From NCBI GenBank assembly GCA_021786105.1, contig JAJYNW010000005.1:52537-116536 (forward strand): a DNA stretch of 64,000 nt, in the 5' to 3' direction. Of the stretch, positions 1-18,562 are shown piece by piece. Made by a program: the position numbers and the translations under genes. Within the stretch, counting starts at the first letter, position 1, and every line of letters starts with the position of its first letter. Origin of the DNA: a bacterium. Its GTDB lineage: Bacteria; Patescibacteriota; Microgenomatia; Daviesbacterales; UBA10151. The notes below the pieces were generated by a model, which did no database searches, was not told the DNA's origin, and saw only the letters and a program-made list of their open reading frames with translations.

Positions 1-684
1 TTTACTCCTGAATTATTCAAAAAAATCAACTTAGAAAGGCTTCCCTGGAAGGAACAAACTTTTATTGTCCAACCGGCATTTTTGCATGAGGCGGTCATAG
101 CCGGGGCCAAATATAAAGAGGTGCCGCTGGTTTTTGGTGATCGGGCGGAAGGGTATTCGAAAAACAAGGTTCTCAACTACACCTATGATGTTATAACTTA
201 CGCTGTTGATGCCAGGTTGCATGCTTGGGGAATTAACATCCCTTTTTTCAAGGTGACCAGGAAAGCTAAAACTTTAATAAAGTTTAGTTTGGTGGGGTTG
301 TTAGGAACTTTCGTCGACTTCTTCTTTTATAAATTATTTATCGGCAGTTTTAATATTCCTCCGGCTACTTCCAAAGGCATGTCAGCGGAATTAGCCATCA
401 TGAACAACTTTTTCTTTAATAATTTTTGGACTTTCCGCTCACGAAAAACCAATACTAACACTTGGCAAAGATTGGGAATGTTTAATCTTTTTAGTTTGGG
501 AGGGTTGGTAATGGGGGTGCTCATAGTTAAATTCCTGCATACGTTATATGGAGATGGTTTTGCAACTGTAGGAAATTTTAAGGTGGCATACAATAACTTT
601 TATTTCTTTGCCACCATCCCTCCGGTTTTAGTTTGGAACTTTACCATAAATCATTTTATTACCTGGAAAAAACAAAAAGACTGA
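1..684 (+). CDS. 5'-truncated (continues upstream of window) GT2 glycosyltransferase C-terminal region fused to a GtrA-like 4-TM flippase domain
   Basis: Frame is open from nt 1 with no stop before the listed ORF at 82. The C-terminal ~120 aa has a GtrA-family pattern (KFSLVGLLGTFVDFFFY ... NNFFFNNFWTFRSRK; N-F-x-x-N-x-x-W-T-F). The upstream part resembles the tail of DPM1-like GT2 enzymes. Confidence 0.6.
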   Translation, partial: FTPELFKKINLERLPWKEQTFIVQPAFLHEAVIAGAKYKEVPLVFGDRAEGYSKNKVLNYTYDVITYAVDARLHAWGINIPFFKVTRKAKTLIKFSLVGLLGTFVDFFFYKLFIGSFNIPPATSKGMSAELAIMNNFFFNNFWTFRSRKTNTNTWQRLGMFNLFSLGGLVMGVLIVKFLHTLYGDGFATVGNFKVAYNNFYFFATIPPVLVWNFTINHFITWKKQKD

Positions 685-933
685 TTAAAGATTTGTAAAT
701 ATTCGGACTAAGGCAAAAAACGCGATTGCTACCCAAATAATGTTAAGTACTGCTGGCTGGTAGTTTCTCTTATAAAATGAAATAGCTATAATTCCGATTG
801 CTCCGGTTAGGTTAAGGAGTTGATATAAAATAGTATTTGAATTTAGCAAGGACCAACTTACAAGTGCGTAAGACCCAACGATTGCTGCAGTCCCATACCA
901 GCCAAAAATTTCAATTAGTTGCTTTTTTGCCAT
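685..933 (-). CDS. small (~83 aa) 3-TM membrane protein, possibly LAB_N/PQ-loop-like; candidate lipid-linked sugar translocase accessory
   Basis: Track ORF is 685..999; start refined to the ATG at 933 (MAKKQLIEIFGWYG...) so that it abuts rather than overlaps the upstream gene, which ends at 938. Three hydrophobic segments. Size and topology resemble lipid-A-disaccharide-synthase N-terminal-domain proteins. Confidence 0.4.
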   Translation of the reverse strand: MAKKQLIEIFGWYGTAAIVGSYALVSWSLLNSNTILYQLLNLTGAIGIIAISFYKRNYQPAVLNIIWVAIAFFALVRIFTNL

Positions 934-937
934 ATTC

Positions 938-2122
938 TTAATTGAAAATTTGTGGGTTGGGGAAAGGCGCGGTGTTAGCCAAAATGAAATTTTGGGCATA
1001 AAGATAAATTGCCAAGGTAATAATTACTAAGACTATTTTAAACTCCTTGGAAGTAAGGTATCTCTCGAAAGCGATTAAGACAAAAGGAAAGATTGGTAAA
1101 ACATAACGGCTGACATCCCGGTGGGCAACAAAAGTAGTCGCCCCAAGATAAGTGAGAGTGAAGAAAGCTAGGGGATAAAGCTTCTTCTTAAAAAGCGCTA
1201 TTCCTCCGGCAAACCCTAAAAGAAGGATATAAACTATGTCTTCCAGCCACATACTTCCGACCCAGAATTGGTTTTTATTAAAGACTTGGTAAGGGGGGAA
1301 GGTAAGGTGAATATTGTCTCCGCTATGAAAGTAAGCGAAAAAATCTCCGTAGCTTATGGAATACCAATAAAATATCCCCAATAGTGTTAAAGGGGCAAGG
1401 ATTAAAGGGAAATAGGAAATTTTTAAGGAGATAATGCGCGGAAAAATATTATTCCATCCACCCTTAGCAAGTTTCCAAAGCAGATAGAGCGCTAAAGAGA
1501 TAAACAACAAAATTCCGGGGGGCCGGGTAATTTGAGCACCTAACCCGGAAATTCCTGCCAAAACAATAAATAAATAATTCTTTTTATCCTCATATTTCAT
1601 AAAGAAGTATAAAGTGAGAATGGTAAAGAAAATAAACATTGGCTCAGCAGAGCCAACCGTATGGACCACCAACCAACGGGCCGGAAGAATTAAAAAGACA
1701 ACGCTCAAAAACAGCGGGTGTTCGCTAAGCTTAAAATCCCGAACCAGAAAATAGAAAGTAATTGCCGAAAGAACGGTAAAGCCTACAGCCACAAAAATCA
1801 TTGATTTTAAAAAGCCCAAAATTGGGGCAAAAACTAGAATTGAAAGGGCATATCCGGGGAAATGAGCGGCAAAATAACCAGCTGGCATTGACTGGGGTAG
1901 GGTGGCAAAGGCTGGGGGACTATAAAGAGTTTTGGCGATCATGACATATTCCAGCCCGTCAAAATTCCTATAGATTGTGTTGAACCCTTCAGAGAAATTT
2001 AATCCATAAAAATTAGGGATTCTCAGGATATGAGGAAGCCAAACTAATAAAGTAATACCTAATGTTGCCAGTATAATTATAGAAATATCTATGAAGGTCT
2101 TCTTCGAGGTAGAAGTTTCCAT
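938..2122 (-). CDS. polytopic GT-C-fold glycosyltransferase, PIG-V (mannosyltransferase)-like
   Basis: About 10 predicted TM helices. Motif FDGLEYVMIAKTLY ... FPGYALSI resembles PIG-V family and the paralog at 38949 (FDGVHFLRIAMLGY ... FFPLYPLL). Confidence 0.5.
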   Translation of the reverse strand: METSTSKKTFIDISIIILATLGITLLVWLPHILRIPNFYGLNFSEGFNTIYRNFDGLEYVMIAKTLYSPPAFATLPQSMPAGYFAAHFPGYALSILVFAPILGFLKSMIFVAVGFTVLSAITFYFLVRDFKLSEHPLFLSVVFLILPARWLVVHTVGSAEPMFIFFTILTLYFFMKYEDKKNYLFIVLAGISGLGAQITRPPGILLFISLALYLLWKLAKGGWNNIFPRIISLKISYFPLILAPLTLLGIFYWYSISYGDFFAYFHSGDNIHLTFPPYQVFNKNQFWVGSMWLEDIVYILLLGFAGGIALFKKKLYPLAFFTLTYLGATTFVAHRDVSRYVLPIFPFVLIAFERYLTSKEFKIVLVIITLAIYLYAQNFILANTAPFPNPQIFN

Positions 2123-2150
2123 ATTCTAGGTTTAATGTTACCATACAACT

Positions 2151-2846
2151 ATGTCAGTGGACAGGTTATCAGTTTTTTTCCCGGCTTATAACGAAGAACA
2201 GAATATTGCCTTAACGGTTGAACAGGCATTAAAGGTTTTAAAAACTCTTGGGCTAAAAAACTATGAAGTGATCATTGTGGATGATGGTTCCAGGGATGAC
2301 ACAGGTAAAATCGCTGATGAGCTTGCTGTAGAATATCCCGAAGTAAAGGTGGTTCATCAGAAGAATCGTGGTTACGGCGGAGCGTTAAAAACCGGGTTTG
2401 AAAATTCAAAATATGAATGGGTAGCATTTGCTGATTCTGATGGACAGTTTGACTTTACGGATATCACCAAGTTTTTGAATGAAGCTGATCGAGGAGACCT
2501 AATAGTGGGGTACCGCATTAAAAGGGCAGATTCTACGCTCCGGAAAATTACTACGTTTGGATGGAAAACAATCGCTAGAATTTTGATGGGTCTTAATGTC
2601 AGAGATTATTCATGTGGCTTCAAATTAATTAAAAAAGAAGTTTATGAAGCTGTTCTTCCTTTGGTTGGGGAAGAAAAAGTAACCCAGATTGAAATGTTGG
2701 TCAAAGCTAAGAGGCTTGGATTTAAGTTTGTGGAAGTCGGAGTACCTCATTATCCTCGAAAATTTGGTATCCAAACCGGGGCCAATTTGAAGGTTGTGCT
2801 AAAGAGTATCTCTGACCTTTTTAAACTCTGGTGGAAAATCCGTTAA
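2151..2846 (+). CDS. GT2 polyprenyl-phosphate sugar synthase (DPM1/GtrB-like, soluble form)
   Basis: N-terminal LSVFFPAYNEE, IIVDDGSRDDT, GYGGALKTG and DSDGQFD motifs typical of DPM1/GtrB-like GT-A enzymes. Confidence 0.8.
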   Translation: MSVDRLSVFFPAYNEEQNIALTVEQALKVLKTLGLKNYEVIIVDDGSRDDTGKIADELAVEYPEVKVVHQKNRGYGGALKTGFENSKYEWVAFADSDGQFDFTDITKFLNEADRGDLIVGYRIKRADSTLRKITTFGWKTIARILMGLNVRDYSCGFKLIKKEVYEAVLPLVGEEKVTQIEMLVKAKRLGFKFVEVGVPHYPRKFGIQTGANLKVVLKSISDLFKLWWKIR

Positions 2847-2847
2847 G

Positions 2848-4356
2848 ATGAAGCCTTTTATTGCTTGGGTTAGGAAAAATCGTTTAGAAGTAGCAATTAT
2901 TGTGCTAATTTTTTTCATGGCTGCATTCATGCGGTTTTACAATCTATCCGGCTACATGACTTTTTTGGGAGATGAGGGTCGGGATGCAATCATAATAAAA
3001 CAGATTTTGGTGGACCATAATCTACCATTTATTGGGCCTCCGACATCGGTGGGGAACATCTACCTTGGTCCTTTTTATTACTACATGATGGCGGTATCGG
3101 AGACTTTCTTTTGGTTAAATCCGGTGGCAGCAGCGGGAATGGTGGCGGGGATCGGCGTAGCGACAGTATTTTTAGTCTATTATCTGGCTCGACGCTGGTT
3201 TGGGTTTTTACCAGCTGTACTCGCAGCATCGCTTTACGCTATTTCGCCGATAAATATCATCTATTCCCGTTCTTCCTGGAACCCCGATCCGGCACCGTTT
3301 TTTGCACTACTAGCTATCTTAGGAATCTATCAAGCCCGGGAGAGCCGGAATTTCCGCTGGTTTATCTTAACCGGGGTAAGTCTGGCGGCAGCTTTACAGA
3401 TGCATTATCTGGCGATGATTTTGATCCCGATATTGGGTTTACTATGGCTGTATGAATTAGTAGTTACCAAGACCAAAAATTATAGAAATTTCTGGACCAG
3501 TACTTTAGGAGCAGTTCTTGCCTTTATCTTAATTATGCTTCCACTGGTGCTTTTTGATTTCAAACACAATTTCCTTAATTTCAAAGCAATGACGTCATTA
3601 TTTTTTGGTGGAGGGAATTCTGTCGGGTTTAGTTTTTCCTCAACTTTAGGCCGGGTCCCTGCTATTTTTAATAACTTGTTAATTGAGAGGTATATTGGAG
3701 GGCAGACTGATTTTATTGGATATACTGTCTCGGTATTAGTGCTGCTTACTTTAGGGTTTGCCATTTGGAAGAAGTTTACTAAAGAGAGGGTTAGTTGGCC
3801 CTATTTTGCCTTAGGAACTTGGTTGGTGCTAGGAATTATAGGGATCTCTCTTTACCGCCAGCAGATCTATGACCATTACTTGGGTTTTGTAAATCCTGCT
3901 CCATTTTTACTTCTCGGGGGATTGGTTAGCTTTCTAAAAGGAAGGAAGCAACTGGCTTTAATGTTGGTGCTTTTGCTAACTTTGGGGATATTCAATATTG
4001 CCAAATCTCCGCTGCAATATTCACCCAACAATCAGCTCCAAAGGACTCAAGAGATTGCCAAGTTTATAATCACTGAATCGGGAAATAAGCCGTTTAATTT
4101 TGCTCTTTTGGCGGAACATAACTATGATTCAGCCTACCAGTATTACTTAGATATTTATGGCCACAAGCCAAAAGTTGTGCCTGATGAGATTACTGATCAG
4201 CTTTTTGTGGTTTGTGAAGATGTGGTTTGTAATCCTGTAGGCAGTCCAAAGTATGAAATAGCTGCCTTTGGTTGGGCAAAAGTAGAAAACAGATGGCAGG
4301 TGTTGGGAGTAAAAGTTTACAAATTGGTGCCTAATCCAACAGGTAAACCTTCCTGA
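2848..4356 (+). CDS. GT-C-fold membrane glycosyltransferase, ArnT/PMT-like (GT39/GT83-like)
   Basis: Multi-TM N-terminal region with an early loop DE motif (FLGDEGRDA) and a C-terminal soluble domain. Directly follows a GT2 Dol-P/Und-P-sugar synthase, a GtrB-GtrC-like pairing. Confidence 0.65.
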   Translation: MKPFIAWVRKNRLEVAIIVLIFFMAAFMRFYNLSGYMTFLGDEGRDAIIIKQILVDHNLPFIGPPTSVGNIYLGPFYYYMMAVSETFFWLNPVAAAGMVAGIGVATVFLVYYLARRWFGFLPAVLAASLYAISPINIIYSRSSWNPDPAPFFALLAILGIYQARESRNFRWFILTGVSLAAALQMHYLAMILIPILGLLWLYELVVTKTKNYRNFWTSTLGAVLAFILIMLPLVLFDFKHNFLNFKAMTSLFFGGGNSVGFSFSSTLGRVPAIFNNLLIERYIGGQTDFIGYTVSVLVLLTLGFAIWKKFTKERVSWPYFALGTWLVLGIIGISLYRQQIYDHYLGFVNPAPFLLLGGLVSFLKGRKQLALMLVLLLTLGIFNIAKSPLQYSPNNQLQRTQEIAKFIITESGNKPFNFALLAEHNYDSAYQYYLDIYGHKPKVVPDEITDQLFVVCEDVVCNPVGSPKYEIAAFGWAKVENRWQVLGVKVYKLVPNPTGKPS

Positions 4357-4380
4357 AGTTGTGTATAATAAAAGTTAAGA

Positions 4381-5127
4381 ATGAGTAATCCCAAATTATC
4401 AGTTATTATTCCCGCTTATAATGCTGCAGAAGACTTAAAACGGGGAATATTAGATGATGTGGCCAAATACCTAGCGAAGCAGGGTTACCCCTCCGAAGTG
4501 TTAATTGTCAATGACGGTTCATCTGACCAAACCGCAGAAATTGTTAAGAAAAATATCGCTGATAAGAAAAGTTTCCGGTTGATCGATAATCCACATAAAG
4601 GAAAAGCGGTGACGGTAATGACCGGGCTTTTAGAAAGCTGTGGGGAGATTGCGGTTTTTACCGATGTTGACCAGTCCACTCCGCTTCCTGAAATTGAGAA
4701 ATTTTTTCCTAAATTTGAGCAAGGGTTTGATATTGTAATTGGTTCCAGATCAGGAAGGTCAGGATCTCCTTTTATTCGGAAGATTGCAACTTTGGGATTT
4801 TCAATCTTAAGAACAGTTATTTTAGGTTTGAATATCTCCGATACCCAATGTGGGTTTAAAGCTTTTGACAGAAAAGCTATAGAACAAATTTTCCCTCCAC
4901 TGCTTAAAAAATACCAAGAGGTAAATGTTTCGGGGCGGGCTTTAAATGCTGATTTTGATGCGGGATTTTTGTTTTTAGCCGGAAAGAAAGGCTTAAAAAT
5001 TGCCGAAGTTAAAGTTGATTGGCATGATGAAAATCCGGAATCCGCTAATCTGGTTAAAAACGCTATTGATACTATCAAAGGGATGATCAGAATTCGGGTT
5101 AGTGATTTCCGGGGAGAGTATGCTTAA
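4381..5127 (+). CDS. GT2 polyprenyl-phosphate sugar synthase (DPM1/GtrB-like)
   Basis: LSVIIPAYNAAEDL, VLIVNDGSSDQT and DVDQSTP (DxD-like) motifs; paralog of 2151..2846. Confidence 0.8.
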   Translation: MSNPKLSVIIPAYNAAEDLKRGILDDVAKYLAKQGYPSEVLIVNDGSSDQTAEIVKKNIADKKSFRLIDNPHKGKAVTVMTGLLESCGEIAVFTDVDQSTPLPEIEKFFPKFEQGFDIVIGSRSGRSGSPFIRKIATLGFSILRTVILGLNISDTQCGFKAFDRKAIEQIFPPLLKKYQEVNVSGRALNADFDAGFLFLAGKKGLKIAEVKVDWHDENPESANLVKNAIDTIKGMIRIRVSDFRGEYA

Positions 5128-6670
5128 TCTATTAAAAACTCGCAAAGTGGAGTGCCTATCCTTAATCCTTTTAATAGGACTTTATTTTGTTTTAAGACTA
5201 CCACATTTAACTTTGCAGCCGATTTTTGCTGACGAGGCAATCTATATTCGCTGGGCCCAAGTGATGGTAGCAGAACCAACCCTTCGATTTTTACCCGTTA
5301 CTGATGGCAAAACACCACTTTTTATGTGGATCATGATGCCTTCATTCAAGTTTTTCGTTGACCCACTACTAACCGGGAGGATTTTGTCTGTTTTTGCCGG
5401 AGCTGCTACTTTGGCGGGAGTGTTCTTTTTAGGGTGGAAGTTTTTCAACTTGAGAAGTGGTTTGTGGGCAGCCCTTCTTGTTGCCGTTACCCCATTTATA
5501 GTTTTTTTTGACCGTTTGGCTTTGGTGGATTCCATGTTGGCAGCTTTTTCGCTTTGGGCGTTAATTTTGGGTTTATTGGTTGTGAAATATTTACGGGTAG
5601 ATTTAGCAATGTGTTTAGGGTACGCCTTGGGGGGTGCGTTACTAACTAAAACTCCAGCAATGTTTAATTTCATTGCCCTCCCTTTCACTATTTTAACTAC
5701 GAATTTTTCTCGGGTCGGTAGAGAAAAAAGGTTCTTAAAGATATTGTTGCTGTGGATTTTAGCAGTTGGCATTGCTCTGGTAATGTATAATTTTTTAAGG
5801 CTTGGACCGAGTTTTGAAAAACTTAATGCCAGGAATCAAGATTACGTTTTTTCCCCATTGGAGCTTGTTGGGAGGCCATTGGATCCTTTTATCCCTCACT
5901 TCCATGATGTTACTGAATTTTTCTCCAAATTAGTGGGAATAGTTGGGTCCTTGTTTGTAATTTTAGGAGTTATTTTGGCTATTGTTAAGAGAAACCGTGT
6001 GGGGTTGGTTATTTTGATTTGGAGTTTAATTCCGCTTTTAATCGAGATGGCTTTCCTAAAGACATTTACTGCAAGGTATATTCTCTCTTCTATTGCCCCG
6101 CTTCTTATTTTAGCTGGATGGGGAATTTCCGAGATTGAGAAATTGATGACTGCAAGAATAAAAAATAAAGTATTGCCCGCACTAGCTCTTTTTATAGTAA
6201 TTGTTTTTTACCCGTTGTCTTTTGATTACTTATTGATAACTGCTCCTGCTCAGGCGGCAGTTCCGGTGAACGACCATAAAGGTTATTTTGAGGAATGGAC
6301 TGCAGGTTATGGGTTTCCTGAGATTGCTCAATTTTTAATTGGGAAAGCCCAGAACGGTCCGGTTATAGTTTTGACGGAGGGATTTTTTGGGACGCTTCCG
6401 GATGGATTGGAAATTTACCTGGAAAAGTATATCCATCAAGCGCCGAAAGGACATGAGATTGTAGTAAAAGGTACAGGCGGCATCAAGATTCCTGAAGATA
6501 TAAGAAAAACAGCATTGACTAGTCAAGTGTATTTTGTTGCCAACCGTTCCCGGTTAGACCCTCTTCCGCCGGGGGTTGAATTAATTAAGGAATTCCCTAA
6601 AAATAAAACTTATATTAATTCACAGGAAGCGATCTTTCTTTTTAAAGTTTTGCCGGAGGTTAAAAAATGA
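5120..6670 (+). CDS. GT-C-fold membrane glycosyltransferase, ArnT/PMT-like
   Basis: Track ORF begins at GTG 5102; the ATG at 5120 is preceded by GGGGAGAG. Loop motif FADEAIYIRW (DE) after TM1, more than 10 TM helices, C-terminal soluble domain. Confidence 0.6.
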   Translation: MLNLLKTRKVECLSLILLIGLYFVLRLPHLTLQPIFADEAIYIRWAQVMVAEPTLRFLPVTDGKTPLFMWIMMPSFKFFVDPLLTGRILSVFAGAATLAGVFFLGWKFFNLRSGLWAALLVAVTPFIVFFDRLALVDSMLAAFSLWALILGLLVVKYLRVDLAMCLGYALGGALLTKTPAMFNFIALPFTILTTNFSRVGREKRFLKILLLWILAVGIALVMYNFLRLGPSFEKLNARNQDYVFSPLELVGRPLDPFIPHFHDVTEFFSKLVGIVGSLFVILGVILAIVKRNRVGLVILIWSLIPLLIEMAFLKTFTARYILSSIAPLLILAGWGISEIEKLMTARIKNKVLPALALFIVIVFYPLSFDYLLITAPAQAAVPVNDHKGYFEEWTAGYGFPEIAQFLIGKAQNGPVIVLTEGFFGTLPDGLEIYLEKYIHQAPKGHEIVVKGTGGIKIPEDIRKTALTSQVYFVANRSRLDPLPPGVELIKEFPKNKTYINSQEAIFLFKVLPEVKK

Positions 6671-8322
6671 ACCTAATAAAAAAAATTACCTGGGTTTTTT
6701 TAATAATTTTGGTTTCCATACCGGCGTTATTACCTTTAACTAGGCAAGGATTCTTCCCTACCCAAGATTTTATTCATGTAGCCAGAATCTACGAGATGGA
6801 CAAGGCTTTAAAGATAGGCCAGTTTCCAGTCAGGTGGGTTCCTGATTTTCGCTATGGTGAGCCAACCTTTGATTTTTATGCCCCGCTCCCATTCTATCTA
6901 GGATCATTAATTCACAACCTGAACTTTAGTTTCCTGGATACAACCAAAATTCTTTTCGGTTTAAGTTTCCTGCTCTCCGGTTTGGCGATGTACCTCCTGT
7001 CAAAGGAATTTTTCGGAAAGGTCGGTGGACTTATCTCAGCAACTTTATATATTTATGCGCCGTATCATTCCGTAGATATCTATGTTCGGGGAGCCTTATC
7101 AGAATCACTCGCGCTAATATTTTTCCCGCTAATTTTTTTAACTGCATTCAGACTAACAAAAGAAGTTAATACTAAAAATATTGCCTTGACTGCACTATCT
7201 TTTGGCGGGCTTTTCCTGACACACAACGTTATGACTGTGCTTTTCACCCCTTTTGCTTTGGGCTGGTTAGCATTTTTGGTTTGGAGGGAGAGGAACTTAA
7301 AGTTAATAAAACCTTTTGGAGTTTCACTTTTGCTTGGCGCAGGCCTTGCCGCAACATTTATGCTGCCGGCATTTTTTGAAAAGAATTTAGTCCAGTCGGA
7401 TAAGATGATTACCGGATACTTTGATTATCGCGGCCATTTCGTGGAAATTAAACAGTTCTTTTCGACATTTTGGGGATATGGGGCATCTTTGTGGGGTCCT
7501 GAAGACGGTATGTCTTTTCAGGTGGGGCTTGTCCATTGGGCCGTTTTTGGTTTGTCCCTTATTACCTCTTTTGTATTCTTTAAAAACAAAAAACAACTCT
7601 ACTTAATTTTGGCTTTGGCTGCAGCCTTCTTGTTTTCATTATTTATGCAGCACAATAAGTCCACCCCTATCTGGACCCACCTTTCACTTTTGGCTTACAC
7701 CCAATTTCCCTGGAGGTTCTTGGGAATTTCGATATTCCTGGTTTCTTTTATTGGTGGGGTATTAGGAACTGTCTTTAAAAAGAAGTTGGTTATCCTGGCG
7801 TTAGTCTTAATCGTTGCAACTGTTTACTTTAATATAAACTTTTTCCACCCGGAGTCATATTATTTGGATTCCATAGATGCTCATTATGTAGGCCCGGAAG
7901 TTTTGGCAAATGGTGATAAATTACCGAAGGATTATTTACCTATTTGGGTTCAGGATTTACAGAGAGACAGGATTATATTCCCCCATACAGTAGGAGGGGA
8001 GGCAATAATTTCTAATTATCAAAATAATTCAACTTCCGCGCAGTTTCAGGCAAAAGTAACCAAAGATGCGGACATTGAAGTACCTTTAACCTACTTTCCA
8101 GGATGGCAAGCTTCAGCAAACAATAAACCAGTCAATCTTGAAACTCCGGATAAATATGGGTTGATTAGAATAAAATTGACACCAGGAGACTACAATGTAA
8201 AATTAACGTTCTTGGATACTCCAATAAGAAGTTTTGGCAATGCCTTATCCATTGTCTCTCTTGTGACAATTATCGGCTTGCTGGCTATGAAAAAGTTTAA
8301 ATTTAAACCATGGTTAACCTAA
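6667..8322 (+). CDS. YfhO-like GT-C-fold membrane glycosyltransferase (tandem paralog 1)
   Basis: Polytopic N-terminal region. C-terminus has the YfhO-type signature (LTYFPGWQASANNKPVNL) followed by a final TM helix. ATGA overlap with the upstream gene. Confidence 0.55.
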   Translation: MNLIKKITWVFLIILVSIPALLPLTRQGFFPTQDFIHVARIYEMDKALKIGQFPVRWVPDFRYGEPTFDFYAPLPFYLGSLIHNLNFSFLDTTKILFGLSFLLSGLAMYLLSKEFFGKVGGLISATLYIYAPYHSVDIYVRGALSESLALIFFPLIFLTAFRLTKEVNTKNIALTALSFGGLFLTHNVMTVLFTPFALGWLAFLVWRERNLKLIKPFGVSLLLGAGLAATFMLPAFFEKNLVQSDKMITGYFDYRGHFVEIKQFFSTFWGYGASLWGPEDGMSFQVGLVHWAVFGLSLITSFVFFKNKKQLYLILALAAAFLFSLFMQHNKSTPIWTHLSLLAYTQFPWRFLGISIFLVSFIGGVLGTVFKKKLVILALVLIVATVYFNINFFHPESYYLDSIDAHYVGPEVLANGDKLPKDYLPIWVQDLQRDRIIFPHTVGGEAIISNYQNNSTSAQFQAKVTKDADIEVPLTYFPGWQASANNKPVNLETPDKYGLIRIKLTPGDYNVKLTFLDTPIRSFGNALSIVSLVTIIGLLAMKKFKFKPWLT

Positions 8323-10034
8323 AGTTGTGGATCAAAAATAATTGGACCTTCCTTTTGGGGCTAATTCTGACATTAGCCCTGCTTTGGCCCCTCTTTCAGG
8401 CTCCTTATTTCTCACAACATGACGATGTTCAGACTATCCGGCTTTATGAAATGGATAAATGCTTCAAGGATGGCCAGATTCCCTGCCGCTGGGTTCCTGA
8501 CTTGGGAGGATTATACGGATACCCGCTGTTTAATTACTATGCGCCTCTCCCATATTACTATGGGGAAATATTTTATTCACTAACCCACAGTTTGCTTTTC
8601 TCTGCCAAATTAATGTTCGTCACCGCTTTTGTCGGTTCTTTCATCTTCATGTTTCTTCTTGCAAGAAAGTTGTGGGGGGGTTATGGAGCCCTAATTTCGG
8701 GAGTGTTTTATGCCTATGCTCCTTATCATGCTGTTGATTTTTATGTCCGAGGAGCAATGGAAGAAATGTGGGCCTTAATGCTTTTTCCGGCAATTCTTTG
8801 GGCGCTATTCCGTTTAAAGGAATCGACACGGATTTATAACGTCATGCTCCTTGGCTTGTTTTTAGCCTTGTTAATGCTTTCGCATAATTTAAGTGCCATG
8901 ATTTTTCTGCCAATTATCTTCACCTTAGTGGTGTTTTTTATGTGGCAAAAAAGGGATTTTAGGCTTTTAAAACTTGTTGTCCTTTCGGGAGTATTAGCAT
9001 TTCTTCTTTCGGCTTTTTATTTTTTACCAATGGTAGCAGAGAAAAATTTGGTGCATGTTGAAACAACAGTTGAGGGTTATTTTTCCTATACTGAACATTT
9101 CAAAGGTTTATATAAACTTTTCATTCAGCGGAATTGGGGTTGGGGTGCATCAGTGAGGGAAGTTCCTGGTGGGGAAAAAGACGGAATGTCTTTTCAGATA
9201 GGATGGGTTCATCTTTTAGGATGGTTCCTGGCTTTGGCTACTGCTGCCTATCTCTGGAAAAAGGATAGACCTAAGAGTCTCCTCTTGGTTATGTTCTCGC
9301 TTTTTACGGTTGCTAGTGTATTTATGATTCATCCACGATCAGAATTCATTTGGAAGTTAATTGACCCCCTTAAATATTTACAATTTCCCTGGAGATTCTT
9401 GATGTTAATTATCTTTTTTGTGTCTTTGATGTCAGGGAGTATTTTTGTTTGGTTGAGCAAGAAAAAAGCAATTCTGCTCCTTTCGGGGCTGATTATTTTG
9501 GTGGTTGCGGCAAACTTTACCTATTTCCGGCCTGAAAAATTTATTCAAGTGACTGACCAGCAACTTTTAACTGGTAAAAATTGGGATACGGAAATTAAGC
9601 GTTCGATATTTGATTTCCTGCCGATTTACGCCCAAGAGCCGCCGGCAGAATTGGCCACAACCAGGTATCAAGTTGTTGTGGGTAATGCTAAGGTAACCAA
9701 CTTCAAAGAAGGGACTAATTGGTTTAACTTTAATGCCAACATTGATACCCACACCATACTCTTGTTGTCCCAATATTATTTCCCTAATTGGAAAGTTTAT
9801 GTTGATGGTCAAGAAGTAAAAGTGGAGTACAAGAATAACCATCTTGGTTTAATGAGTTTGATTATTGGGCCGGGAAACCATTATATTTCAGGGAAGCTTG
9901 AGAATACCACCATCCGCTCTGCCGGCAATTTGATTAGCCTTGGAGGGGTATTAATTTTCTTATTATTAATACCAACTCAGATTCCCAGTACAAGAAGGTG
10001 GCTTACTTACTATTTGAAAGCATTATATAGGTAG
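8310..10034 (+). CDS. YfhO-like GT-C-fold membrane glycosyltransferase (tandem paralog 2)
   Basis: Clear paralog of 6667..8322 (IRLYEMDKCFKDGQIPCRWVPD vs ARIYEMDKALKIGQFPVRWVPD). C-terminal YYFPNWKVYVDGQEV motif plus a terminal TM. Confidence 0.55.
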   Translation: MVNLKLWIKNNWTFLLGLILTLALLWPLFQAPYFSQHDDVQTIRLYEMDKCFKDGQIPCRWVPDLGGLYGYPLFNYYAPLPYYYGEIFYSLTHSLLFSAKLMFVTAFVGSFIFMFLLARKLWGGYGALISGVFYAYAPYHAVDFYVRGAMEEMWALMLFPAILWALFRLKESTRIYNVMLLGLFLALLMLSHNLSAMIFLPIIFTLVVFFMWQKRDFRLLKLVVLSGVLAFLLSAFYFLPMVAEKNLVHVETTVEGYFSYTEHFKGLYKLFIQRNWGWGASVREVPGGEKDGMSFQIGWVHLLGWFLALATAAYLWKKDRPKSLLLVMFSLFTVASVFMIHPRSEFIWKLIDPLKYLQFPWRFLMLIIFFVSLMSGSIFVWLSKKKAILLLSGLIILVVAANFTYFRPEKFIQVTDQQLLTGKNWDTEIKRSIFDFLPIYAQEPPAELATTRYQVVVGNAKVTNFKEGTNWFNFNANIDTHTILLLSQYYFPNWKVYVDGQEVKVEYKNNHLGLMSLIIGPGNHYISGKLENTTIRSAGNLISLGGVLIFLLLIPTQIPSTRRWLTYYLKALYR

Positions 10035-10041
10035 ACTATAA

Positions 10042-10203
10042 CCGCTTTGCCAGAACAGTGCATTTAAATTCTGAGTAAATTTGGCAAAGATAAGCGGAGC
10101 TTGCGACCTTCGGTCTAATGGTTTCAAACTTCCGCAGTTTAATGCTAGCAAAGCGGATGTAAACTTGAAAGGAGAAAATGCAGACTTTCGGTCTGCGGAA
10201 GTT
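10042..10203 (+). promoter_or_regulatory. structured intergenic leader with nested and mutually exclusive inverted repeats upstream of or around the Wzx start
   Basis: CCGCTTTGCCAG (10042..10053) pairs with TTGGCAAAG..GCGG (10081..10097). GACCTTCGGTC hairpin at 10105..10115. AACTTCCGCAG (10127..10137) is perfectly complementary to CTGCGGAAGTT (10193..10203), enclosing AAAGGAG and ATG 10178. Confidence 0.4.
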
Positions 10204-11698
10204 TATGGAAGACATTAATGCGGATGAGCACTTGGATGCTACAGGTGAAATTACAATCGAAACGGTTAAAAAAAGAGCAGTTGGCGGAATAGCTGCTTTA
10301 ACCGGGAGAACAATATTTTTTCAGGGTGTAACCCTTATCGCCACTTTCTTTCTGACTGTTTTTTTAAATCCCGGCCAGTATGGTGTGTTTTATATTGTTT
10401 CGGCGGTAGTAGGATTTTTTGCCAAATTTGATATGGGTTTGGCTGCAGCGTTAGTCCAAAAGAAGGATCACCCTGCACCGCAAGACTTAAAAACTGCATT
10501 TACGATCCAAAACTCGATAGTGCTCACTTTTGTTATCCTTATTTTTCTGACTACTCCTTTTATCTCTAGTTGGCAGCACCTAAACCAAGAAAGCACTTAT
10601 TTGCTTTGGGCTTTAGCTTTGGGGTTATTAATAGCATCTTTAAAAAGTATTCCCTCAACTCTTTTAGAAAGAGAATTGAATTTCAGCAGATATGTTATTC
10701 CTCAAATGGTGGAACAGTTATTGTTCTATACAGTGGCAGTATTTCTGGCTTGGCGGGGTTTAGGGGTAACCAGCTACACCGTTGCTGTATTGGTAAGCGG
10801 AGTATCGGGACTAATCTTGATTTATATTTTGCGTCCCTGGAAACCCGGGATTGCTTGGGATGGAAAATCTTTTAGGAATTTGCTTCGTTATGGGATACCT
10901 TACCAATTTAATACCATTTTGGCTTCAATTAAGGATGATGGCATGACTCTGGTATTGGGTGGAATCTTAGGGTCAGCGAATTACGGCTTGTTAGTTTGGG
11001 CCAAAAAGTGGGCTGAAGCTCCCCTCCGGTTCTTTATGGACCAGGTCATTAAGGTGACATTTCCAGCCTATTCCCGGATGCAAGACAACCAGGAAGAGCT
11101 TTCAAAAGCTGTAACAAAATCCTTGTTATTCATTTGTCTTTTGGTTTTTCCGGCGTTGGCTGGATTAGTCATCCTGGCTCCTTCTTTAGTTAATCTAATT
11201 CCCCGATATGGGAAGTGGGAACCTGCATTATTTGCCCTGGCGCTAATTTCCATAAACTCAGCTTGGGCAGCAATAACTACTCCTTTAACTAATGTGCTGA
11301 TGGCTATCGGGAAAATAAAAACTACTTCCCGCTTGATGGTCATGTGGACAGTACTTACTTGGGTACTTTTCCCGCTGCTTGCTTATCTTTACGGAATAAA
11401 CGGGGTAGCGTGGGGTTATGTTGTGGTAGGATGCAGCTCGCTGGTTGCTGTTCTGGTTGCTTTGAAATCTGTTAAAGTTGATATCCTCTCATGTATTGGT
11501 AAGCCTTTGTTTTCAACCCTAATTTTTGCTTTAGCTTTATTAGCCGGCCGTCAACTATTGCCCTTATCTTGGATCAGCTTTTTCTCTATTTTAATGTTCG
11601 GGTTATTAATATACCTGTTTTTTACCTTCCTGCTTTTGGGGCCGACTCTGAGCAAAGATGCTAAAAAATTAGCTTTAGGAATTAGGGGGAGGATCTAG
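10178..11698 (+). CDS. Wzx/PST-family (MOP superfamily) oligosaccharide flippase
   Basis: About 12-14 TM helices and an LNPGQYGVF motif near TM1 typical of polysaccharide-biosynthesis (PST) proteins. The alternative in-frame start ATG 10205 is favoured by the conserved upstream palindrome (see findings). Confidence 0.7.
   Translation: MQTFGLRKFMEDINADEHLDATGEITIETVKKRAVGGIAALTGRTIFFQGVTLIATFFLTVFLNPGQYGVFYIVSAVVGFFAKFDMGLAAALVQKKDHPAPQDLKTAFTIQNSIVLTFVILIFLTTPFISSWQHLNQESTYLLWALALGLLIASLKSIPSTLLERELNFSRYVIPQMVEQLLFYTVAVFLAWRGLGVTSYTVAVLVSGVSGLILIYILRPWKPGIAWDGKSFRNLLRYGIPYQFNTILASIKDDGMTLVLGGILGSANYGLLVWAKKWAEAPLRFFMDQVIKVTFPAYSRMQDNQEELSKAVTKSLLFICLLVFPALAGLVILAPSLVNLIPRYGKWEPALFALALISINSAWAAITTPLTNVLMAIGKIKTTSRLMVMWTVLTWVLFPLLAYLYGINGVAWGYVVVGCSSLVAVLVALKSVKVDILSCIGKPLFSTLIFALALLAGRQLLPLSWISFFSILMFGLLIYLFFTFLLLGPTLSKDAKKLALGIRGRI
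10181..10195. promoter_or_regulatory. 15-bp palindrome CAGACTTTCGGTCTG, 9 nt upstream of in-frame ATG 10205 of the Wzx gene
   Basis: Perfect 5+5 inverted repeat. Near-identical copy at 15170..15184 with identical spacing to a start codon; core GACCTTCGGTC also at 10105..10115. Confidence 0.45.
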
Positions 11699-14600
11699 GT
11701 GCTTAAAAGATTATTCCTTGTATTAAGTATATTCTTTTTAGTATTGTCCTTTTTATTTGTCCCTAAAAAGGTACAAGCTGCAGATAACTCCTTTGTAAAT
11801 ATAGTTAATCCTGTGAGGGGAGCAGATTTTTGGGATTTAAAAGGCCAAAAACCGGTAGATAGTGTTTTAGGGGAAGCCGAAATCCTAAAACAAGCAAACT
11901 TGCCTGCTACGTGGCTCATCCGCTTTGATGCCTTAAATGACAATCAAGTTACAGATGTTATTAAAAATTTACCCCAAAATCATGAAATTGGTTTGTTTTT
12001 AGAGGTCACTCCTACTTGGACTAAGGCAGCAAATGTAAATTATAAATCTTCAGGCAGTTGGCATGGAGCAGGGAGTGCATTTTTGACCGGTTATGAACCT
12101 TCTGAGAGAGAAAAATTAATAGATAGTGCCTTTGATAATTTCAAAAGAATTTACGGTTACTATCCCAAGTCTATTGGTGCCTGGTATATCGATAGTTACT
12201 CCTTAAGTTACATGCAGAAAAAATATGGAATTGTGGGGGCATTAATTGTTGCCGATCAACACAGTACCGATAGCTATCAAATCTGGGGACAATTTTGGTC
12301 AACCCCTTATTATCCTTCCTCAAAAAATACCCTGATACCGGCCCAAAATTCTGAAGATAAATTACCTGTAGTCATTACCCAATGGGCGGCGCGTGACCCT
12401 CTAAACGGATATGGCAAAGGGGTAGAGGAGAGTACCTACAGTGTTCAGCCAAATGATTATATTGATTACCATAATTTGGGCACTAACTACTTTTCTAATC
12501 TCTTAGATATCTACACTTCCCAAAATTTGAATCAATTTAACCAAATTGTAGTTGGATTGGAGAACACTTACTCCTGGAAAAAGTATCAATCTGAATATCA
12601 AAATCAAATAAACATTATCTCTGCAAAGAATAAATCAGGGCAGTTTGGGGTGAATACTATGAAAGATTTCGCGGGCTGGTACATGAATAAATTTACCGGT
12701 GTTTCCCCGACTCAAGTGGTAGTGGCTAAGGATCCGCTCGGAACGGATAAATTTGCAGTATGGTTTATGAATCCATTCTATCGGGCTGGATGGGTTTATA
12801 ACCAGGATGGAAGTTTATTCCGTGATGTAAGGCCTTATACCGAGGGGAGGGATGAACAGTGTTACTCAGTTTCCTGTGACAAACTGGAGTTTGCCACTTT
12901 TGCGCTTTGGACGATTGATGAAATTACCAGAAATCAAAAGTTTGTTTTGGATCCGGGTAAAGTTAAAGACATTGAGTTAGCTAAAGATGGTCAAAACTAT
13001 TTGCTCAAGTACTCTAATGAAGCAGGAAGAACACGGGAGGTGACTTTTATGCCCCGCGATATTGGGGTTGATGGAAAAGTTAAATCAATAGATGCCTTTA
13101 TCTTGGATGCGACTTCCGGCAGCCAAGGAGGGCAAACTACAAAGGAAAAATATCCCGAAAGCAATATCAAAGTACCGGCTCCCAATATTCCTCTGTTTTT
13201 GGGATCAATTTTGAAATTTGTGCTATTTTTGATATTCGCTTTATTTATTCCGGGGTTTGTGCTTTTGGGAAGGACCAAAGAATTACATATTTTAAACAGG
13301 GCTTTTCTTTCAATTTGTATAGGAATTGTCGGGATTACTGTTCTTTCGTATTTAACAGGGTACCTAAAGATAGGGTGGATAGCTTATCTCTATATAGCTG
13401 TGTTTTTGTTGATTTTTATATCGCGGAGATTTCACCATGATCTTAAAATAGACAAATCAGAAATTAGGTTCTCAAAGGTATCAGCTGCCATTCTTTTGGT
13501 AATTGTAGCAGGTACTATTTTCCAGTCTTTAGCCATGATCCGATCTGGTTGGCCTTACAGCTTTGGTTTAGGTTTTTGGGGACCAATCGGGCACGACGGC
13601 ATTTGGCATCAGGCATTAATTAACCAATTACTACAAAATGTTCCGCCTCAGAACCCCGGTTTTGCGGGTAATACTCTTTCTAACTATCATTACTTTTATG
13701 ACCTCCTTGTTGCCGTTACGGCGGCATTAACTCAAATACCAGTTCTGGATTTGTTGTACAGGTTTTATCCGGTGCTCTTATCGTTGCTGCTGGGAGCGGG
13801 GACTTATTTTTTGGTGATGAAATTGTCAAAGAGTAAAATTGCCGCTTTGTTGTCCTTATATTTTGTTTATTTTGCAGGCAGTTTTGGATGGATGGTAGAG
13901 TTTATTAAACAAAGGCACTTTGGTGGTGAATCATCTTTTTGGGCGAACCAACCGGTTTCTGCAAACCTGAATCCCCCCTTTGCAATCTCTTTGGTTTTGC
14001 TGGTTGCTTTAATGGTACTTGTTTCTTACATAAGAGAACGTAACCTCAGACTAGGTTTTTTGGTGGCGCTAACTGCCGGGTCATTAATTGAGTTTAAAGT
14101 GTATGCCGGTGTTATTGTTTTGGGAGGGCTATTTGCCACTGCGCTCTTGCAGTTTTTACAAAAAAGAGATTTATCGGCAATGAAAATGTTTTTTGGGGCA
14201 TTGGTGTTATCGCTGGTAGTTTTTCTGCCCCAAAACAGTAAGTCGGGTGAGCTTTTAGTGTTTTCTCCTTTTTGGTTTGTGAATTCAATGATTAATTTCC
14301 CCGATAGGGTAGGTTGGGAAAGACTGGCTTTAGCTCTTCAAGTGGCTCCCTTAAGGGGGGAATGGCTTAAGTTCTTTGTGGTAGAAGGGATAGCTTTGTT
14401 AATTTTTATAGTTGGAAACTTGGGGACCAGATTTTTGGCACTGTTTTCTTTGCCTGTATTTTTTAAGAGGAGATTATGGGAAATGCCCGAGTATCTTTTA
14501 ATTATTTTTATGTCCGCTCTGGCTTTTTTAATTCCGGTATTTTTTATTCAAAAGGGTAATCCCTGGAATACGATCCAATTTTTCTATTATTTCATTTACT

Positions 14601-15163
14601 TTGTGGCTATTTTTACGGGGGATGCCTTAATAGCTATAAGGAAACATCTGCCAAAATATTTAAGTTTTGTTCTTTTGGGAATTTTGCTAATAATTACTCC
14701 CATTAATGCTTTTGTGACGTTTACCAGCTATCTTTCCTCGTCTTCTCCCTCAAGGCTTACCGGCGGAGAGTATGCAGGACTTAGCTTTTTGCACAAACTT
14801 CCCGATGGTGTTGTATTGACTTATCCTTTTGATAAGAATGAGCGTTCTAAATTTAACGACCCGTTCCCCTTGCTAATTTATGATACAAGCAACTATGTTT
14901 CTGCTTTTTCAGGAAAACCAGTGTTTGTGGAAGATGAAATTCAGCAGGAAATTTTGCAAAATGATTACCAAAAGAGATTAGTAGAGGCCTCCGATTTCTT
15001 TAATGGAAGGGATCCCAAATGGTCTGCTAATTTCTTAAAGCAAAACAATATTAAATATATTTATCTTCCGAAGATATTCTCTGTTTCACTTGATGAAGAA
15101 TCGCTTAATTTAAAAAAGGTTTATGATAATGAAGAGGTGGATGTTTATGTTCGTCAGAACTAA
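11699..15163 (+). CDS. large fusion protein: signal peptide + ~500 aa extracytoplasmic domain + C-terminal polytopic HGHDG-x-WH GT-C-like membrane module
   Basis: GTG start directly after the upstream stop, with GGGGGAGGA 7 nt upstream. N-terminus MLKRLFLVLSIFFLVLSFLFVPKKVQA/AD is a classic signal peptide. Residues ~520-1154 are clearly homologous to the whole of 18570..20543 (shared HDG[IM]WH, NPxFAG, FAGSFG, GGES-FWA blocks). Confidence 0.5.
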   Translation: MLKRLFLVLSIFFLVLSFLFVPKKVQAADNSFVNIVNPVRGADFWDLKGQKPVDSVLGEAEILKQANLPATWLIRFDALNDNQVTDVIKNLPQNHEIGLFLEVTPTWTKAANVNYKSSGSWHGAGSAFLTGYEPSEREKLIDSAFDNFKRIYGYYPKSIGAWYIDSYSLSYMQKKYGIVGALIVADQHSTDSYQIWGQFWSTPYYPSSKNTLIPAQNSEDKLPVVITQWAARDPLNGYGKGVEESTYSVQPNDYIDYHNLGTNYFSNLLDIYTSQNLNQFNQIVVGLENTYSWKKYQSEYQNQINIISAKNKSGQFGVNTMKDFAGWYMNKFTGVSPTQVVVAKDPLGTDKFAVWFMNPFYRAGWVYNQDGSLFRDVRPYTEGRDEQCYSVSCDKLEFATFALWTIDEITRNQKFVLDPGKVKDIELAKDGQNYLLKYSNEAGRTREVTFMPRDIGVDGKVKSIDAFILDATSGSQGGQTTKEKYPESNIKVPAPNIPLFLGSILKFVLFLIFALFIPGFVLLGRTKELHILNRAFLSICIGIVGITVLSYLTGYLKIGWIAYLYIAVFLLIFISRRFHHDLKIDKSEIRFSKVSAAILLVIVAGTIFQSLAMIRSGWPYSFGLGFWGPIGHDGIWHQALINQLLQNVPPQNPGFAGNTLSNYHYFYDLLVAVTAALTQIPVLDLLYRFYPVLLSLLLGAGTYFLVMKLSKSKIAALLSLYFVYFAGSFGWMVEFIKQRHFGGESSFWANQPVSANLNPPFAISLVLLVALMVLVSYIRERNLRLGFLVALTAGSLIEFKVYAGVIVLGGLFATALLQFLQKRDLSAMKMFFGALVLSLVVFLPQNSKSGELLVFSPFWFVNSMINFPDRVGWERLALALQVAPLRGEWLKFFVVEGIALLIFIVGNLGTRFLALFSLPVFFKRRLWEMPEYLLIIFMSALAFLIPVFFIQKGNPWNTIQFFYYFIYFVAIFTGDALIAIRKHLPKYLSFVLLGILLIITPINAFVTFTSYLSSSSPSRLTGGEYAGLSFLHKLPDGVVLTYPFDKNERSKFNDPFPLLIYDTSNYVSAFSGKPVFVEDEIQQEILQNDYQKRLVEASDFFNGRDPKWSANFLKQNNIKYIYLPKIFSVSLDEESLNLKKVYDNEEVDVYVRQN

Positions 15164-15169
15164 AACAAA

Positions 15170-15184
15170 CAGACCGAAGGTCTG
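15170..15184. promoter_or_regulatory. 15-bp palindrome CAGACCGAAGGTCTG, 9 nt upstream of ATG 15194 (ArnT-like gene)
   Basis: Same palindrome as at 10181..10195 (one central mismatch) followed by YGNAAGTTT then ATG in both cases. Confidence 0.45.
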
Positions 15185-15193
15185 TGCAAGTTT

Positions 15194-17937: not shown

Positions 17938-18562
17938 ATTATTTTGGATCTTGTTAATTTTGGTTATTTCAGCCCCGGCCATTTTAAGTTTGGGTATCAG
18001 ATTGGTTCCGAATAGTTTCCAGCCTTCTTTGGACGGTACCCAAAAAGTTTATGGAGAAGTAAAAGTTTCTTCCGATATCTCAAGTAGCTCTAATAATTTA
18101 TCCGGAATTGGTCTAAGCATTAAAAATCCAAACTTGATTAATAAAAAAGACATTAATCTTTCGGTATTTTCCAACGGAAATCTTTTGAGAAGCGTGACTT
18201 TAAACGGCAGGTCTATTGGTGACGGAAATTTTATAAAATTTATTTTTGATCCGATAGACGACTCCAAAGGAAAAGTATATAACATGGTTTTTTCGGCACC
18301 GGGAGTTGCTGATGGGGAAGCATTGGAGATTTTTCTTACCAGTAATCCGGATGGATCAGGGATTAAAGTGGGTAAGGATGTCCATACCGAAGGTTTATCG
18401 GACGTGGTTTTCTATCACCCAAGTAACCCCCTCTCATTAGCTACAATAATATATGAGGAACTGATAGGAAGACTGGCAAAAGATATGATGTTTTTTGCTT
18501 TTTATATTATTATCCTTGGAGGATTAGGAGCATACTTATTTACGCTATCCAAAAAATCCTAG
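17930..18562 (+). CDS. bitopic membrane protein with Ser/Asn/Gly-rich ectodomain, unknown function
   Basis: N-terminal signal anchor, ~150 aa hydrophilic S/N/G-rich domain, C-terminal TM; translationally coupled to the upstream GT-C gene. Confidence 0.35.
   Translation: MNRLFWILLILVISAPAILSLGIRLVPNSFQPSLDGTQKVYGEVKVSSDISSSSNNLSGIGLSIKNPNLINKKDINLSVFSNGNLLRSVTLNGRSIGDGNFIKFIFDPIDDSKGKVYNMVFSAPGVADGEALEIFLTSNPDGSGIKVGKDVHTEGLSDVVFYHPSNPLSLATIIYEELIGRLAKDMMFFAFYIIILGGLGAYLFTLSKKS

Follow-up and report, generated by a model that had tools for sequence, protein, structure and literature searches.

Predicted YfhO and YfhO-like GT-C glycosyltransferases in a large, probably envelope-directed glycan gene island of a Daviesbacterales (Patescibacteriota) genome

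Introduction

On what does a YfhO-type glycosyltransferase act in a bacterium that is not expected to make teichoic acids? The question is raised by a 64-kb stretch of DNA from a member of the Daviesbacterales (Patescibacteriota, Microgenomatia), a lineage of the candidate phyla radiation (CPR); the stretch comprises positions 52,537 to 116,536 of contig JAJYNW010000005.1 (assembly GCA_021786105.1) and is referred to here as the window. To our knowledge, the envelopes of CPR bacteria, or Patescibacteria, are almost unstudied chemically. A first-pass annotation of the window, made from its letters alone, had noticed a tandem pair of YfhO-like genes and a third gene of this family, situated among genes for family 2 glycosyltransferases (GT2), and had left it open whether the acceptor is a protein, a lipoglycan or a novel polymer. 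We call the genes of the pair A and B and the third gene C, and all coordinates given below are those of the window.

The YfhO family includes the YfhO enzymes of Bacillus subtilis and Staphylococcus aureus, which add N-acetylglucosamine to lipoteichoic acid (LTA), and Lmo1079 of Listeria monocytogenes, which adds it to wall teichoic acid (WTA) (PMC5836110, PMC8035078). Systems of this type follow a three-component logic, in which a GT2 enzyme, a flippase and a GT-C glycosyltransferase work together (PMC8035078, PMC5836110). Here we report that the products of A, B and C are, with high confidence, GT-C glycosyltransferases with their active site outside the membrane. As a whole, the observations are best explained if the three form a GT-C trio within one envelope glycan island, with a rhamnose-containing glycopolymer as acceptor, which we consider a reasonably probable account.

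Results

Position and family of the three genes

The three open reading frames (ORFs) were all found where the first-pass annotation had placed them. Gene A (6667-8322, plus strand; 551 residues) encodes a predicted GT-C membrane glycosyltransferase that combines a core of the PF10131 type with a C-terminal module of the YfhO type, and gene B (8310-10034, plus strand; 574 residues) encodes its tandem paralogue, which is 35% identical to A in a full-length alignment (E 1e-96). Gene C (27034-29472; 812 residues), encoding a bona fide GT-C glycosyltransferase of the YfhO family, lies on the minus strand, a detail that had gone unmentioned. A GGAGG sequence is found 8 nt upstream of the ATG of A, this start overlaps the stop codon of the upstream gene (ATGA), and B, if called at 574 residues, has an ATG that gives a 13-nt overlap with the end of A; with these overlaps and the GGAGG before A, the arrangement looks like one operon. 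Gene calls differ in the start of B, which has 559 residues if read from an alternative TTG at 8355, and the true start of C may be a few codons downstream, residues 1-18 being of low confidence. A promoter and terminator scan of positions 1-16000 of the window showed no excess over shuffled sequences and was uninformative.

Profile searches separated the third gene from the pair. C belongs to YfhO, with 116.7 bits (E 1.4e-33) against PF09586, whose gathering score is 28.5 bits, and all 120 listed relatives of C carry this domain; its only NCBIfam match is to PgfM2, at 40 bits and far under the cut-off. The assignment of all three genes to YfhO, as proposed in the first pass, was thereby upheld for C and not for A and B, which did not match PF09586 even at E <= 10. 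Instead, A and B matched PF10131 (PTPS_related) with 33.5 and 28.7 bits, respectively (gathering score 26.4), over profile positions 1-312 of 621 only. A scan of both proteins against NCBIfam retrieved nothing, and B reached 24.9 bits with the PMT_2 profile, which is under the cut-off. PF10131 is part of the GT-C clan (CL0111) and is listed as being of unknown function (PMC7801869); the relatives of A and B are named '6-pyruvoyl-tetrahydropterin synthase-related protein' at NCBI. In relatives of A at 50-60% identity, the N-terminal 70-400 residues match PF10131, and the last ~70 residues of A-family relatives match positions 750-825 of the YfhO profile, with 25-36 bits. A and B are uncharacterised new members of a known GT-C kind, already covered by Pfam and named by NCBI.

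A C-terminal module shared by A, B and C

The YfhO-profile match at the C-terminus of the A relatives coincides exactly with a motif that the first-pass annotation had described, together with a terminal transmembrane (TM) helix, as common to the three proteins. Both features are indeed there. A six-frame scan of the whole 64-kb window for [YFW][YFW]P[GNDS]W detected, always in frame and within the C-terminal beta-sandwich, YFPGW in A (8092-8106, plus strand), YFPNW in B (9777-9791, plus strand) and YYPGW in C (27253-27267, minus strand), at 71-80 residues from the C-terminus in each protein, and the only other match in the window, at 29920, is unrelated. In each of the three proteins, the motif comes before the terminal TM helix, which spans residues 519-544 of A and 777-810 of C in AlphaFold2 models. 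In BLASTP comparisons with C, A (E 8e-5) and B (E 4e-4) aligned only over the C-terminal 50-90 residues; hhalign, restricted to the C-terminal parts, aligned A 440-541 with C 702-799, over 98 columns comprising the beta-sandwich and the terminal TM helix, at 98.4% probability (E 9e-15). The C-terminal signature common to the three proteins is specific, and no chance pattern.

For the profile comparisons we used an alignment of 43 sequences of the A/B family (alignment A1) and one of 40 relatives of C (alignment A2). The N-terminal cores aligned at 99.1% probability (E 1.6e-18), A 7-251 with C 23-302. This places a Pro-x(1-2)-Trp of the first loop (P54/W57 in A) with P101/W103 of C, a Gly-x-Pro (G64/P66 in A) with G110/P112, and R40 of A with the Arg of the YPWR motif of C. 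In a control comparison, the N-terminal core of A/B was nearly as close to the PMT_2 paralogues of the window (98.4%, E 7.6e-15) as to YfhO, indicating that the N-terminal half shows membership of the GT-C superfamily only. The specific link of A and B to YfhO, as read from sequence, is the C-terminal module together with the collinear architecture.

A and B also differ from C in the length of the extracytoplasmic loop that connects the penultimate TM helix with the terminal one. This loop has ~125 residues in A and B (393-518 in A) and ~265 in C (residues 515-776); it has 389 residues in YfhO from B. subtilis (PMC5836110). Because their loop is far shorter, we name A and B a short-form YfhO-like subfamily and do not count them as members of YfhO. 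We also considered that A and B might simply be diverged copies of C, and rejected it given the absence of BLASTP similarity beyond the C-terminal module, the loop length and the closeness of their core to PMT_2.

Predicted structure and conserved residues

Models of A (built with alignment A1; pLDDT 90.5, pTM 0.91) and C (built with alignment A2; pLDDT 91.1, pTM 0.90) show the GT-C fold, and their best structural matches, Pmt4, STT3, AglB, AftA and AftD, are common to both. Protein-modifying and polysaccharide-building enzymes are found among these neighbours at equal scores and, therefore, the fold does not identify the acceptor. Sequence searches of the PDB with the A-family profile and with C gave nothing meaningful, no solved structure being a sequence relative, and neither YfhO nor PF10131 has a solved structure that could be set beside the models.

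We evaluated residue conservation in a set of 169 members, in which A and B were joined by 167 further ORFs taken from 80 species-representative loci; gapped sequences were excluded from the counts. Asp34 of A, which ends the FFPTQD stretch of the first extracytoplasmic loop (codon 6766-6768, plus strand), is an Asp in 166/166 sequences and is a candidate catalytic base; it is invariant in alignment A1, and its counterpart in B lies within HDD. Other fixed residues of A are R56, R141 and E146, each in 168/168 sequences, and H186, in 169/169. A QFPWR signature (residues 346-350 of A; 7702-7716, plus strand) was present in all 169 family members; of the C-terminal motif, P478 is kept by 168/169 members and W480 by 135/169.

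None of the residues invariant in alignment A1 is changed in B, suggesting that both copies are probably active. The idea that B is a degenerate copy was ruled out on these retained residues. In six species-representative loci where both orthologues are clear, the B-type copies share 46-61% identity with B, five of the six falling within 57-61%, and the A-type copies show 45-49% identity, so that the B-type copy is conserved at least as well.

Distribution and synteny

The exact proteins were found on metagenomic contigs that reach 942,606 bp. Relatives of A and B were searched with alignment A1 in one genome per GTDB species, which retrieved at least 573 stretches; the same contig scan with protein A alone produced 246 pattern matches and no relative. 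We checked the titles of the best 80, and all the informative ones correspond to Daviesbacteria, Woesebacteria, Collierbacteria, Amesbacteria, Blackburnbacteria, Microgenomates, Patescibacteria or Paceibacterota; named relatives of the pair also include Candidatus Daviesbacteria and Parcubacteria. The first-pass impression of a CPR-type genome agrees with these relatives, among them Candidatus Daviesbacteria, Woesebacteria, Collierbacteria and Microgenomates. Many of the metagenome-assembled genomes that carry the genes are titled 'uncultured Gammaproteobacteria (or Pseudomonadales) bacterium isolate binchicken_...', for instance OZ246397.1, a chromosome of 615 kb. These titles are probably placeholders or a wrong taxonomy, the same Microgenomates-type locus being found there on CPR-sized chromosomes.

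Gene order was counted in 55 species-representative loci in which the array has 2.5 kb or more of sequence on either side. The array consists of one copy in 24 loci, two in 9, three in 16 and four in 6. A PMT_2-type gene is directly upstream of it in 32/55 loci and a Wzx gene directly downstream in 26/55, and a C-type YfhO is found within the 21 kb in 7/55. The order GT2-GtrA fusion, PMT (minus strand), GT2, PMT_2, GT2, PMT_2, A/B array, Wzx and a protein of ~1150 residues is kept in Daviesbacteria and recurs, with variations, across Microgenomates loci; in the Daviesbacteria relative GCA_040959955.1, rml-type genes are found before the locus. Clear orthologues of A and of B coexist in Daviesbacteria-like loci, indicating that the duplication predates those species. 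Local order is also kept around an orthologue of C with 66% identity, which is on the opposite strand and has GT2 genes on its flanks, and another orthologue of C is ~28 kb from an A homologue on one contig. In the literature on glycosyltransferases, teichoic acid and rhamnose in CPR, Patescibacteria and Microgenomates, we found no study of this locus or of the family.

The glycan gene island

The three genes belong to an unbroken block of glycan genes that covers at least 75 kb, with nearly all genes on the same strand, in a genome of roughly 1 Mb whose longest contig has 0.94 Mb. The window alone, nearly all of it given to glycan genes, contains 15 GT-C-type proteins above Pfam cut-offs (PMT, PMT_2, PF10131, YfhO, PIG-M-like and PIG-V-like) and two others, GT87-like, just under them. 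It also contains 12 GT2 and a GT2-GtrA fusion, four glycosyltransferases of family 4 (GT4), two Wzx/MOP flippases, an MBOAT/AlgX-like pair, an LPG_synthase_TM protein, methyltransferases and an epimerase. Just before position 1 of the window, the upstream flank carries rmlA, rmlB, rmlC, rmlD and an extra epimerase gene (positions 2933-8534 of stretch L088), which points to a rhamnose-containing glycan. Downstream, the island goes on with more PMT_2 and GT4 genes.

The first-pass annotation had spoken of many GtrB-like GT2 genes. This is partly true: besides the fusion there are 12 GT2, of which only one (58428-59366, minus strand) is a candidate full-length enzyme of the ArnC/PgfS/GtrB type. 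It has two C-terminal TM helices and reaches, over its full length, 196.6 bits with the ArnC model and 149.9 bits with PgfS, both under the equivalog cut-offs. Four genes (starting at 2151, 4381, 41313 and 57606) have best matches to polyprenyl-phosphate sugar synthases over the catalytic domain only. One of them (4381-5127, plus strand; 248 residues, PF00535 88 bits) lacks a TM helix and is a candidate polyprenyl-phosphate sugar synthase; its best NCBIfam matches are PgfS, ArnC and a Dol-P-hexose transferase, and it is two genes upstream of A, a position that is kept in relatives. The GT2 gene that converges on C (26203-27054, plus strand) has its best match in a rhamnosyltransferase subfamily (TIGR01556, 93.7 bits; cut-off 200.55), and the local order is the same beside the orthologue of C with 66% identity. 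The GT2 gene at 31436 likewise has rhamnosyltransferases as its best match.

A GtrA-type domain, a candidate for a small flippase, is encoded at the beginning of the window (82-684, plus strand; PF04138 69 bits). It forms the C-terminal half of a fusion of 395 residues that begins upstream of the window and that, in the full gene, contains GT2 and GtrA_DPMS_TM domains. The gene immediately upstream of the A/B array (5102-6670, plus strand) encodes a PMT_2-type GT-C protein (PMT_2, 37 bits). In NCBIfam, this protein matches archaeal Agl23, a 'flippase activity-associated protein', with 43.3 bits (cut-off 126). The downstream neighbour of the array (10178-11698, plus strand) encodes a flippase of the Wzx/MOP family (Polysacc_synt_3, 176 bits; MOP flippase, 140 bits, cut-off 273). 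It is followed by a gene (11699-15163, plus strand) for a conserved protein of 1154 residues, with ~14 TM helices and an N-terminal extracytoplasmic domain of ~480 residues, whose orthologues of ~1140-1160 residues are found after Wzx in many Microgenomates loci. This protein has no Pfam match at E <= 0.01 and, in a relaxed scan, matches DUF3863 only (14.4 bits, E 0.017).

Relaxed Pfam scans of the multi-TM ORFs starting at 11699, 17930, 18570, 23475, 43199 and 43995 gave nothing usable. Four ORFs (17930-18562, plus strand; 18570-20543, minus strand; 23475-25247, plus strand; and 43199-43993, plus strand) match no family at relaxed thresholds, and three of the four encode membrane proteins, for which 2, 10 and 9 TM helices are predicted. 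Two of these family-less ORFs, of 210 and 657 residues, adjoin GT87-like genes in relatives, where they are conserved. The ORF at 43995-47114 (minus strand) encodes 1039 residues with ~18 predicted TM helices and a weak GT87 match in the middle of the protein, and could consist of two fused GT-C-like modules. Between GT4 and methyltransferase genes, a further ORF (51050-51997, plus strand) encodes a protein that consists of an LPG_synthase_TM domain only (77 bits). Annotations frequently describe stand-alone domains of this type as glycosyltransferase partners with a flippase-like role.

Discussion

From the fold and from the neighbouring GT2, GtrA and Wzx genes, we infer that A, B and C use a sugar linked to polyprenyl phosphate as donor. 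In the mechanism that we propose, cytoplasmic GT2 enzymes of the GtrB/ArnC/DPMS type would load single sugars onto polyprenyl phosphate, and GtrA-type or Wzx-type proteins would act as flippases for the lipid-linked sugars or oligosaccharides. The GT-C enzymes would then use the Asp of their first outer loop (Asp34 in A) for transferring the sugar to an acceptor outside the membrane. The C-terminal beta-sandwich, which the terminal TM helix would keep at the membrane, may help to bind this acceptor. A and B would differ in donor or linkage specificity.

The identity of the acceptor is narrowed by the rmlABCD genes upstream, the rhamnosyltransferase-like GT2 genes and the two Wzx flippases. We tentatively take it to be most likely a rhamnose-containing glycopolymer of the wall or membrane, built by the island itself, rather than a protein, and not a teichoic acid; our confidence in this particular choice is somewhat short of even. 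Sister GT-C enzymes of the PMT_2 type decorate rhamnan, pellicle and secondary cell wall polysaccharides (PMC8035078), and a study of Patescibacteria suggested a rhamnose wall polysaccharide in place of teichoic acid in Patescibacterium (PMC11809585). Several points weigh against our interpretation. The polymer pathway is incomplete as seen: in the window we recognised neither a priming phosphoglycosyltransferase or a Wzy-type polymerase nor an LCP ligase or an ABC exporter. The subfamily calls for the GT2 genes are best NCBIfam matches, all of them under the curated cut-offs, and the role of Asp34 as a candidate catalytic base is drawn by analogy with other GT-C enzymes. Finally, our search of the literature on PF10131 found no functional work and no characterised enzyme of this family or of the A/B subfamily and, with no characterised member, the assignment to PF10131 tells nothing on the substrate.

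The main alternative is that A, B and/or C are protein O-glycosyltransferases acting on S-layer proteins, pilins or disordered surface regions rich in Ser and Thr. There is a precedent in streptococci, where PgtC2 and PgfM1/PgfM2, of the YfhO family, O-glycosylate proteins with lipid-linked sugars made by GtrB/PgfS (PMC12041528). PMT enzymes, too, glycosylate proteins. Three matches in the window point in this direction: that of C to PgfM2, that of the GT2 at 4381 to PgfS, its best in NCBIfam, and that of the first Wzx to an 'O-glycosylation flippase' model, with 107.6 bits for a cut-off of 720. However, these supporting matches are all far under cut-off, no candidate acceptor protein rich in Ser and Thr was identified beside the genes, and rmlABCD, the rhamnosyltransferase-like GT2s, the GT4s and the two Wzx fit the assembly of a polymer or oligosaccharide better. 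We regard protein glycosylation as rather unlikely, and a role of A and/or B as polymerase, ligase or accessory subunits (Wzy/WaaL-like or flippase-associated) acting with the adjacent Wzx as scarcely credible. This last possibility could account for the position of the array immediately upstream of Wzx, as seen in 26/55 loci, and for no Wzy polymerase being recognised elsewhere in the window, and B does show a Wzy_C match (15.4 bits, E 0.017); but this match is far under the 31.7-bit cut-off, the model of A is clearly GT-C and not a Wzy/WaaL fold, and the Asp of the first loop and other GT-C-like polar residues are invariant.

That the genes glycosylate LTA or WTA, with the backbone pathway encoded elsewhere in the genome, is in our view very unlikely, although C is a genuine YfhO and the characterised YfhO enzymes of Bacillus, Staphylococcus and Listeria act on one or the other polymer (PMC5836110, PMC8035078). 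Among the ~48 ORFs of the window and ~18 kb of flanks we found no TagB/TagF (Glyphos_transf), LtaS-type sulfatase, TagA, LCP, DltA or DltC. An MBOAT protein (47208-48701, plus strand) has DltB as its sole NCBIfam match, with 158.9 bits against a cut-off of 375, which could be taken in favour of teichoic acids; its partner (48703-49941, plus strand), however, is a single-TM protein with an AlgX-type SGNH domain. The two look like an extracytoplasmic pair for O-acyl modification (acetyl, possibly D-alanyl), and the AlgX-type partner is no less compatible with a polysaccharide as the target of O-acylation. The rhamnose polysaccharide proposed for Patescibacteria instead of teichoic acid (PMC11809585) and the restriction of the A/B subfamily to Patescibacteria-type genomes, among the informative titles of the best 80, also speak against a teichoic acid acceptor. 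The premise from which the locus first appeared puzzling, that YfhO implies teichoic acid, is itself out of date, as the action of PgtC2 and PgfM1/PgfM2 on proteins demonstrates (PMC12041528): since enzymes of this family already glycosylate streptococcal proteins, a YfhO-type enzyme outside a teichoic acid producer is not anomalous, and the paradox is weak.

We compared the genes and their island with several known systems. In the YfhO family, including PgtC2 of Streptococcus pyogenes and PgfM1/PgfM2 of Streptococcus mutans, C is a member, and A and B share the homologous core and the C-terminal module in the same order; as in that family, A, B and C are near GT2 genes that are candidates for the GtrB type and near GtrA genes. 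Unlike them, A and B lack a PF09586 match and have a short last loop, and the host is a CPR bacterium with no teichoic acid genes in view. A and B pass the gathering score of PF10131, yet with the first half of the profile only and at low scores of 29-34 bits. Three-component systems of the GtrA/GtrB/GtrC type, such as CsbB-GtcA-YfhO, GacI-GacK-GacL and CsdAB/CD/EF-CflA, resemble the island in that the window offers GT2 candidates, a GtrA domain, Wzx and GT-C proteins, and GacL and the Csd systems decorate rhamnan, fitting the rml genes found here (PMC8035078). Those systems, however, are single GT2/GT-C pairs that act on a polymer made elsewhere, whereas at least 15 GT-C, 12 GT2 and 4 GT4 proteins are encoded here in one island, which suggests that a large part of glycan assembly takes place outside the membrane. 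The mycobacterial and corynebacterial lines (AftA-D, EmbA-C, PimE, GT87 mannosyltransferases) also have many paralogous GT-C enzymes, which use polyprenyl-phosphate sugars for a wall glycan; our models have AftD and AftA among their best structural matches, and the window contains GT87-, PIG-M- and PIG-V-like genes. The differences are that no membership was found at the sequence level, that there are no arabinose or galactan genes, and that the host envelope is another.

A more speculative extension, which we hold to be doubtful, is that the A/B arrays, the locus of rml, GT2-GtrA, PMT_2, Wzx and ~1150-residue protein genes, and the more than 15 GT-C genes constitute a Microgenomates-wide assembly line. 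It would make a rhamnose-containing envelope glycopolymer largely outside the membrane from polyprenyl-phosphate sugars, each tandem paralogue adding a distinct residue or linkage, and in CPR bacteria this polymer would stand where Firmicutes have teichoic acids. If true, its logic would resemble that of the assembly of mycobacterial arabinogalactan and lipoarabinomannan.

Two annotation habits are corrected by our results: '6-pyruvoyl-tetrahydropterin synthase-related' is a name without meaning, and YfhO should not be equated with teichoic acid. The results reveal no new kind of mechanism, and more interesting than the pair itself is the conserved, GT-C-dominated island of Microgenomates with its tandem expansion of one subfamily. 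A genome of roughly 1 Mb that devotes at least 75 kb to surface glycan genes does so to an unusually large extent, and GT-C enzymes make up the largest group. With its conserved pair family, tandem expansion to between one and four copies and fixed position between PMT_2 and Wzx, downstream of rmlABCD, the locus would serve as a marker for the main surface glycan of this lineage, which is probably what hosts and phages see.

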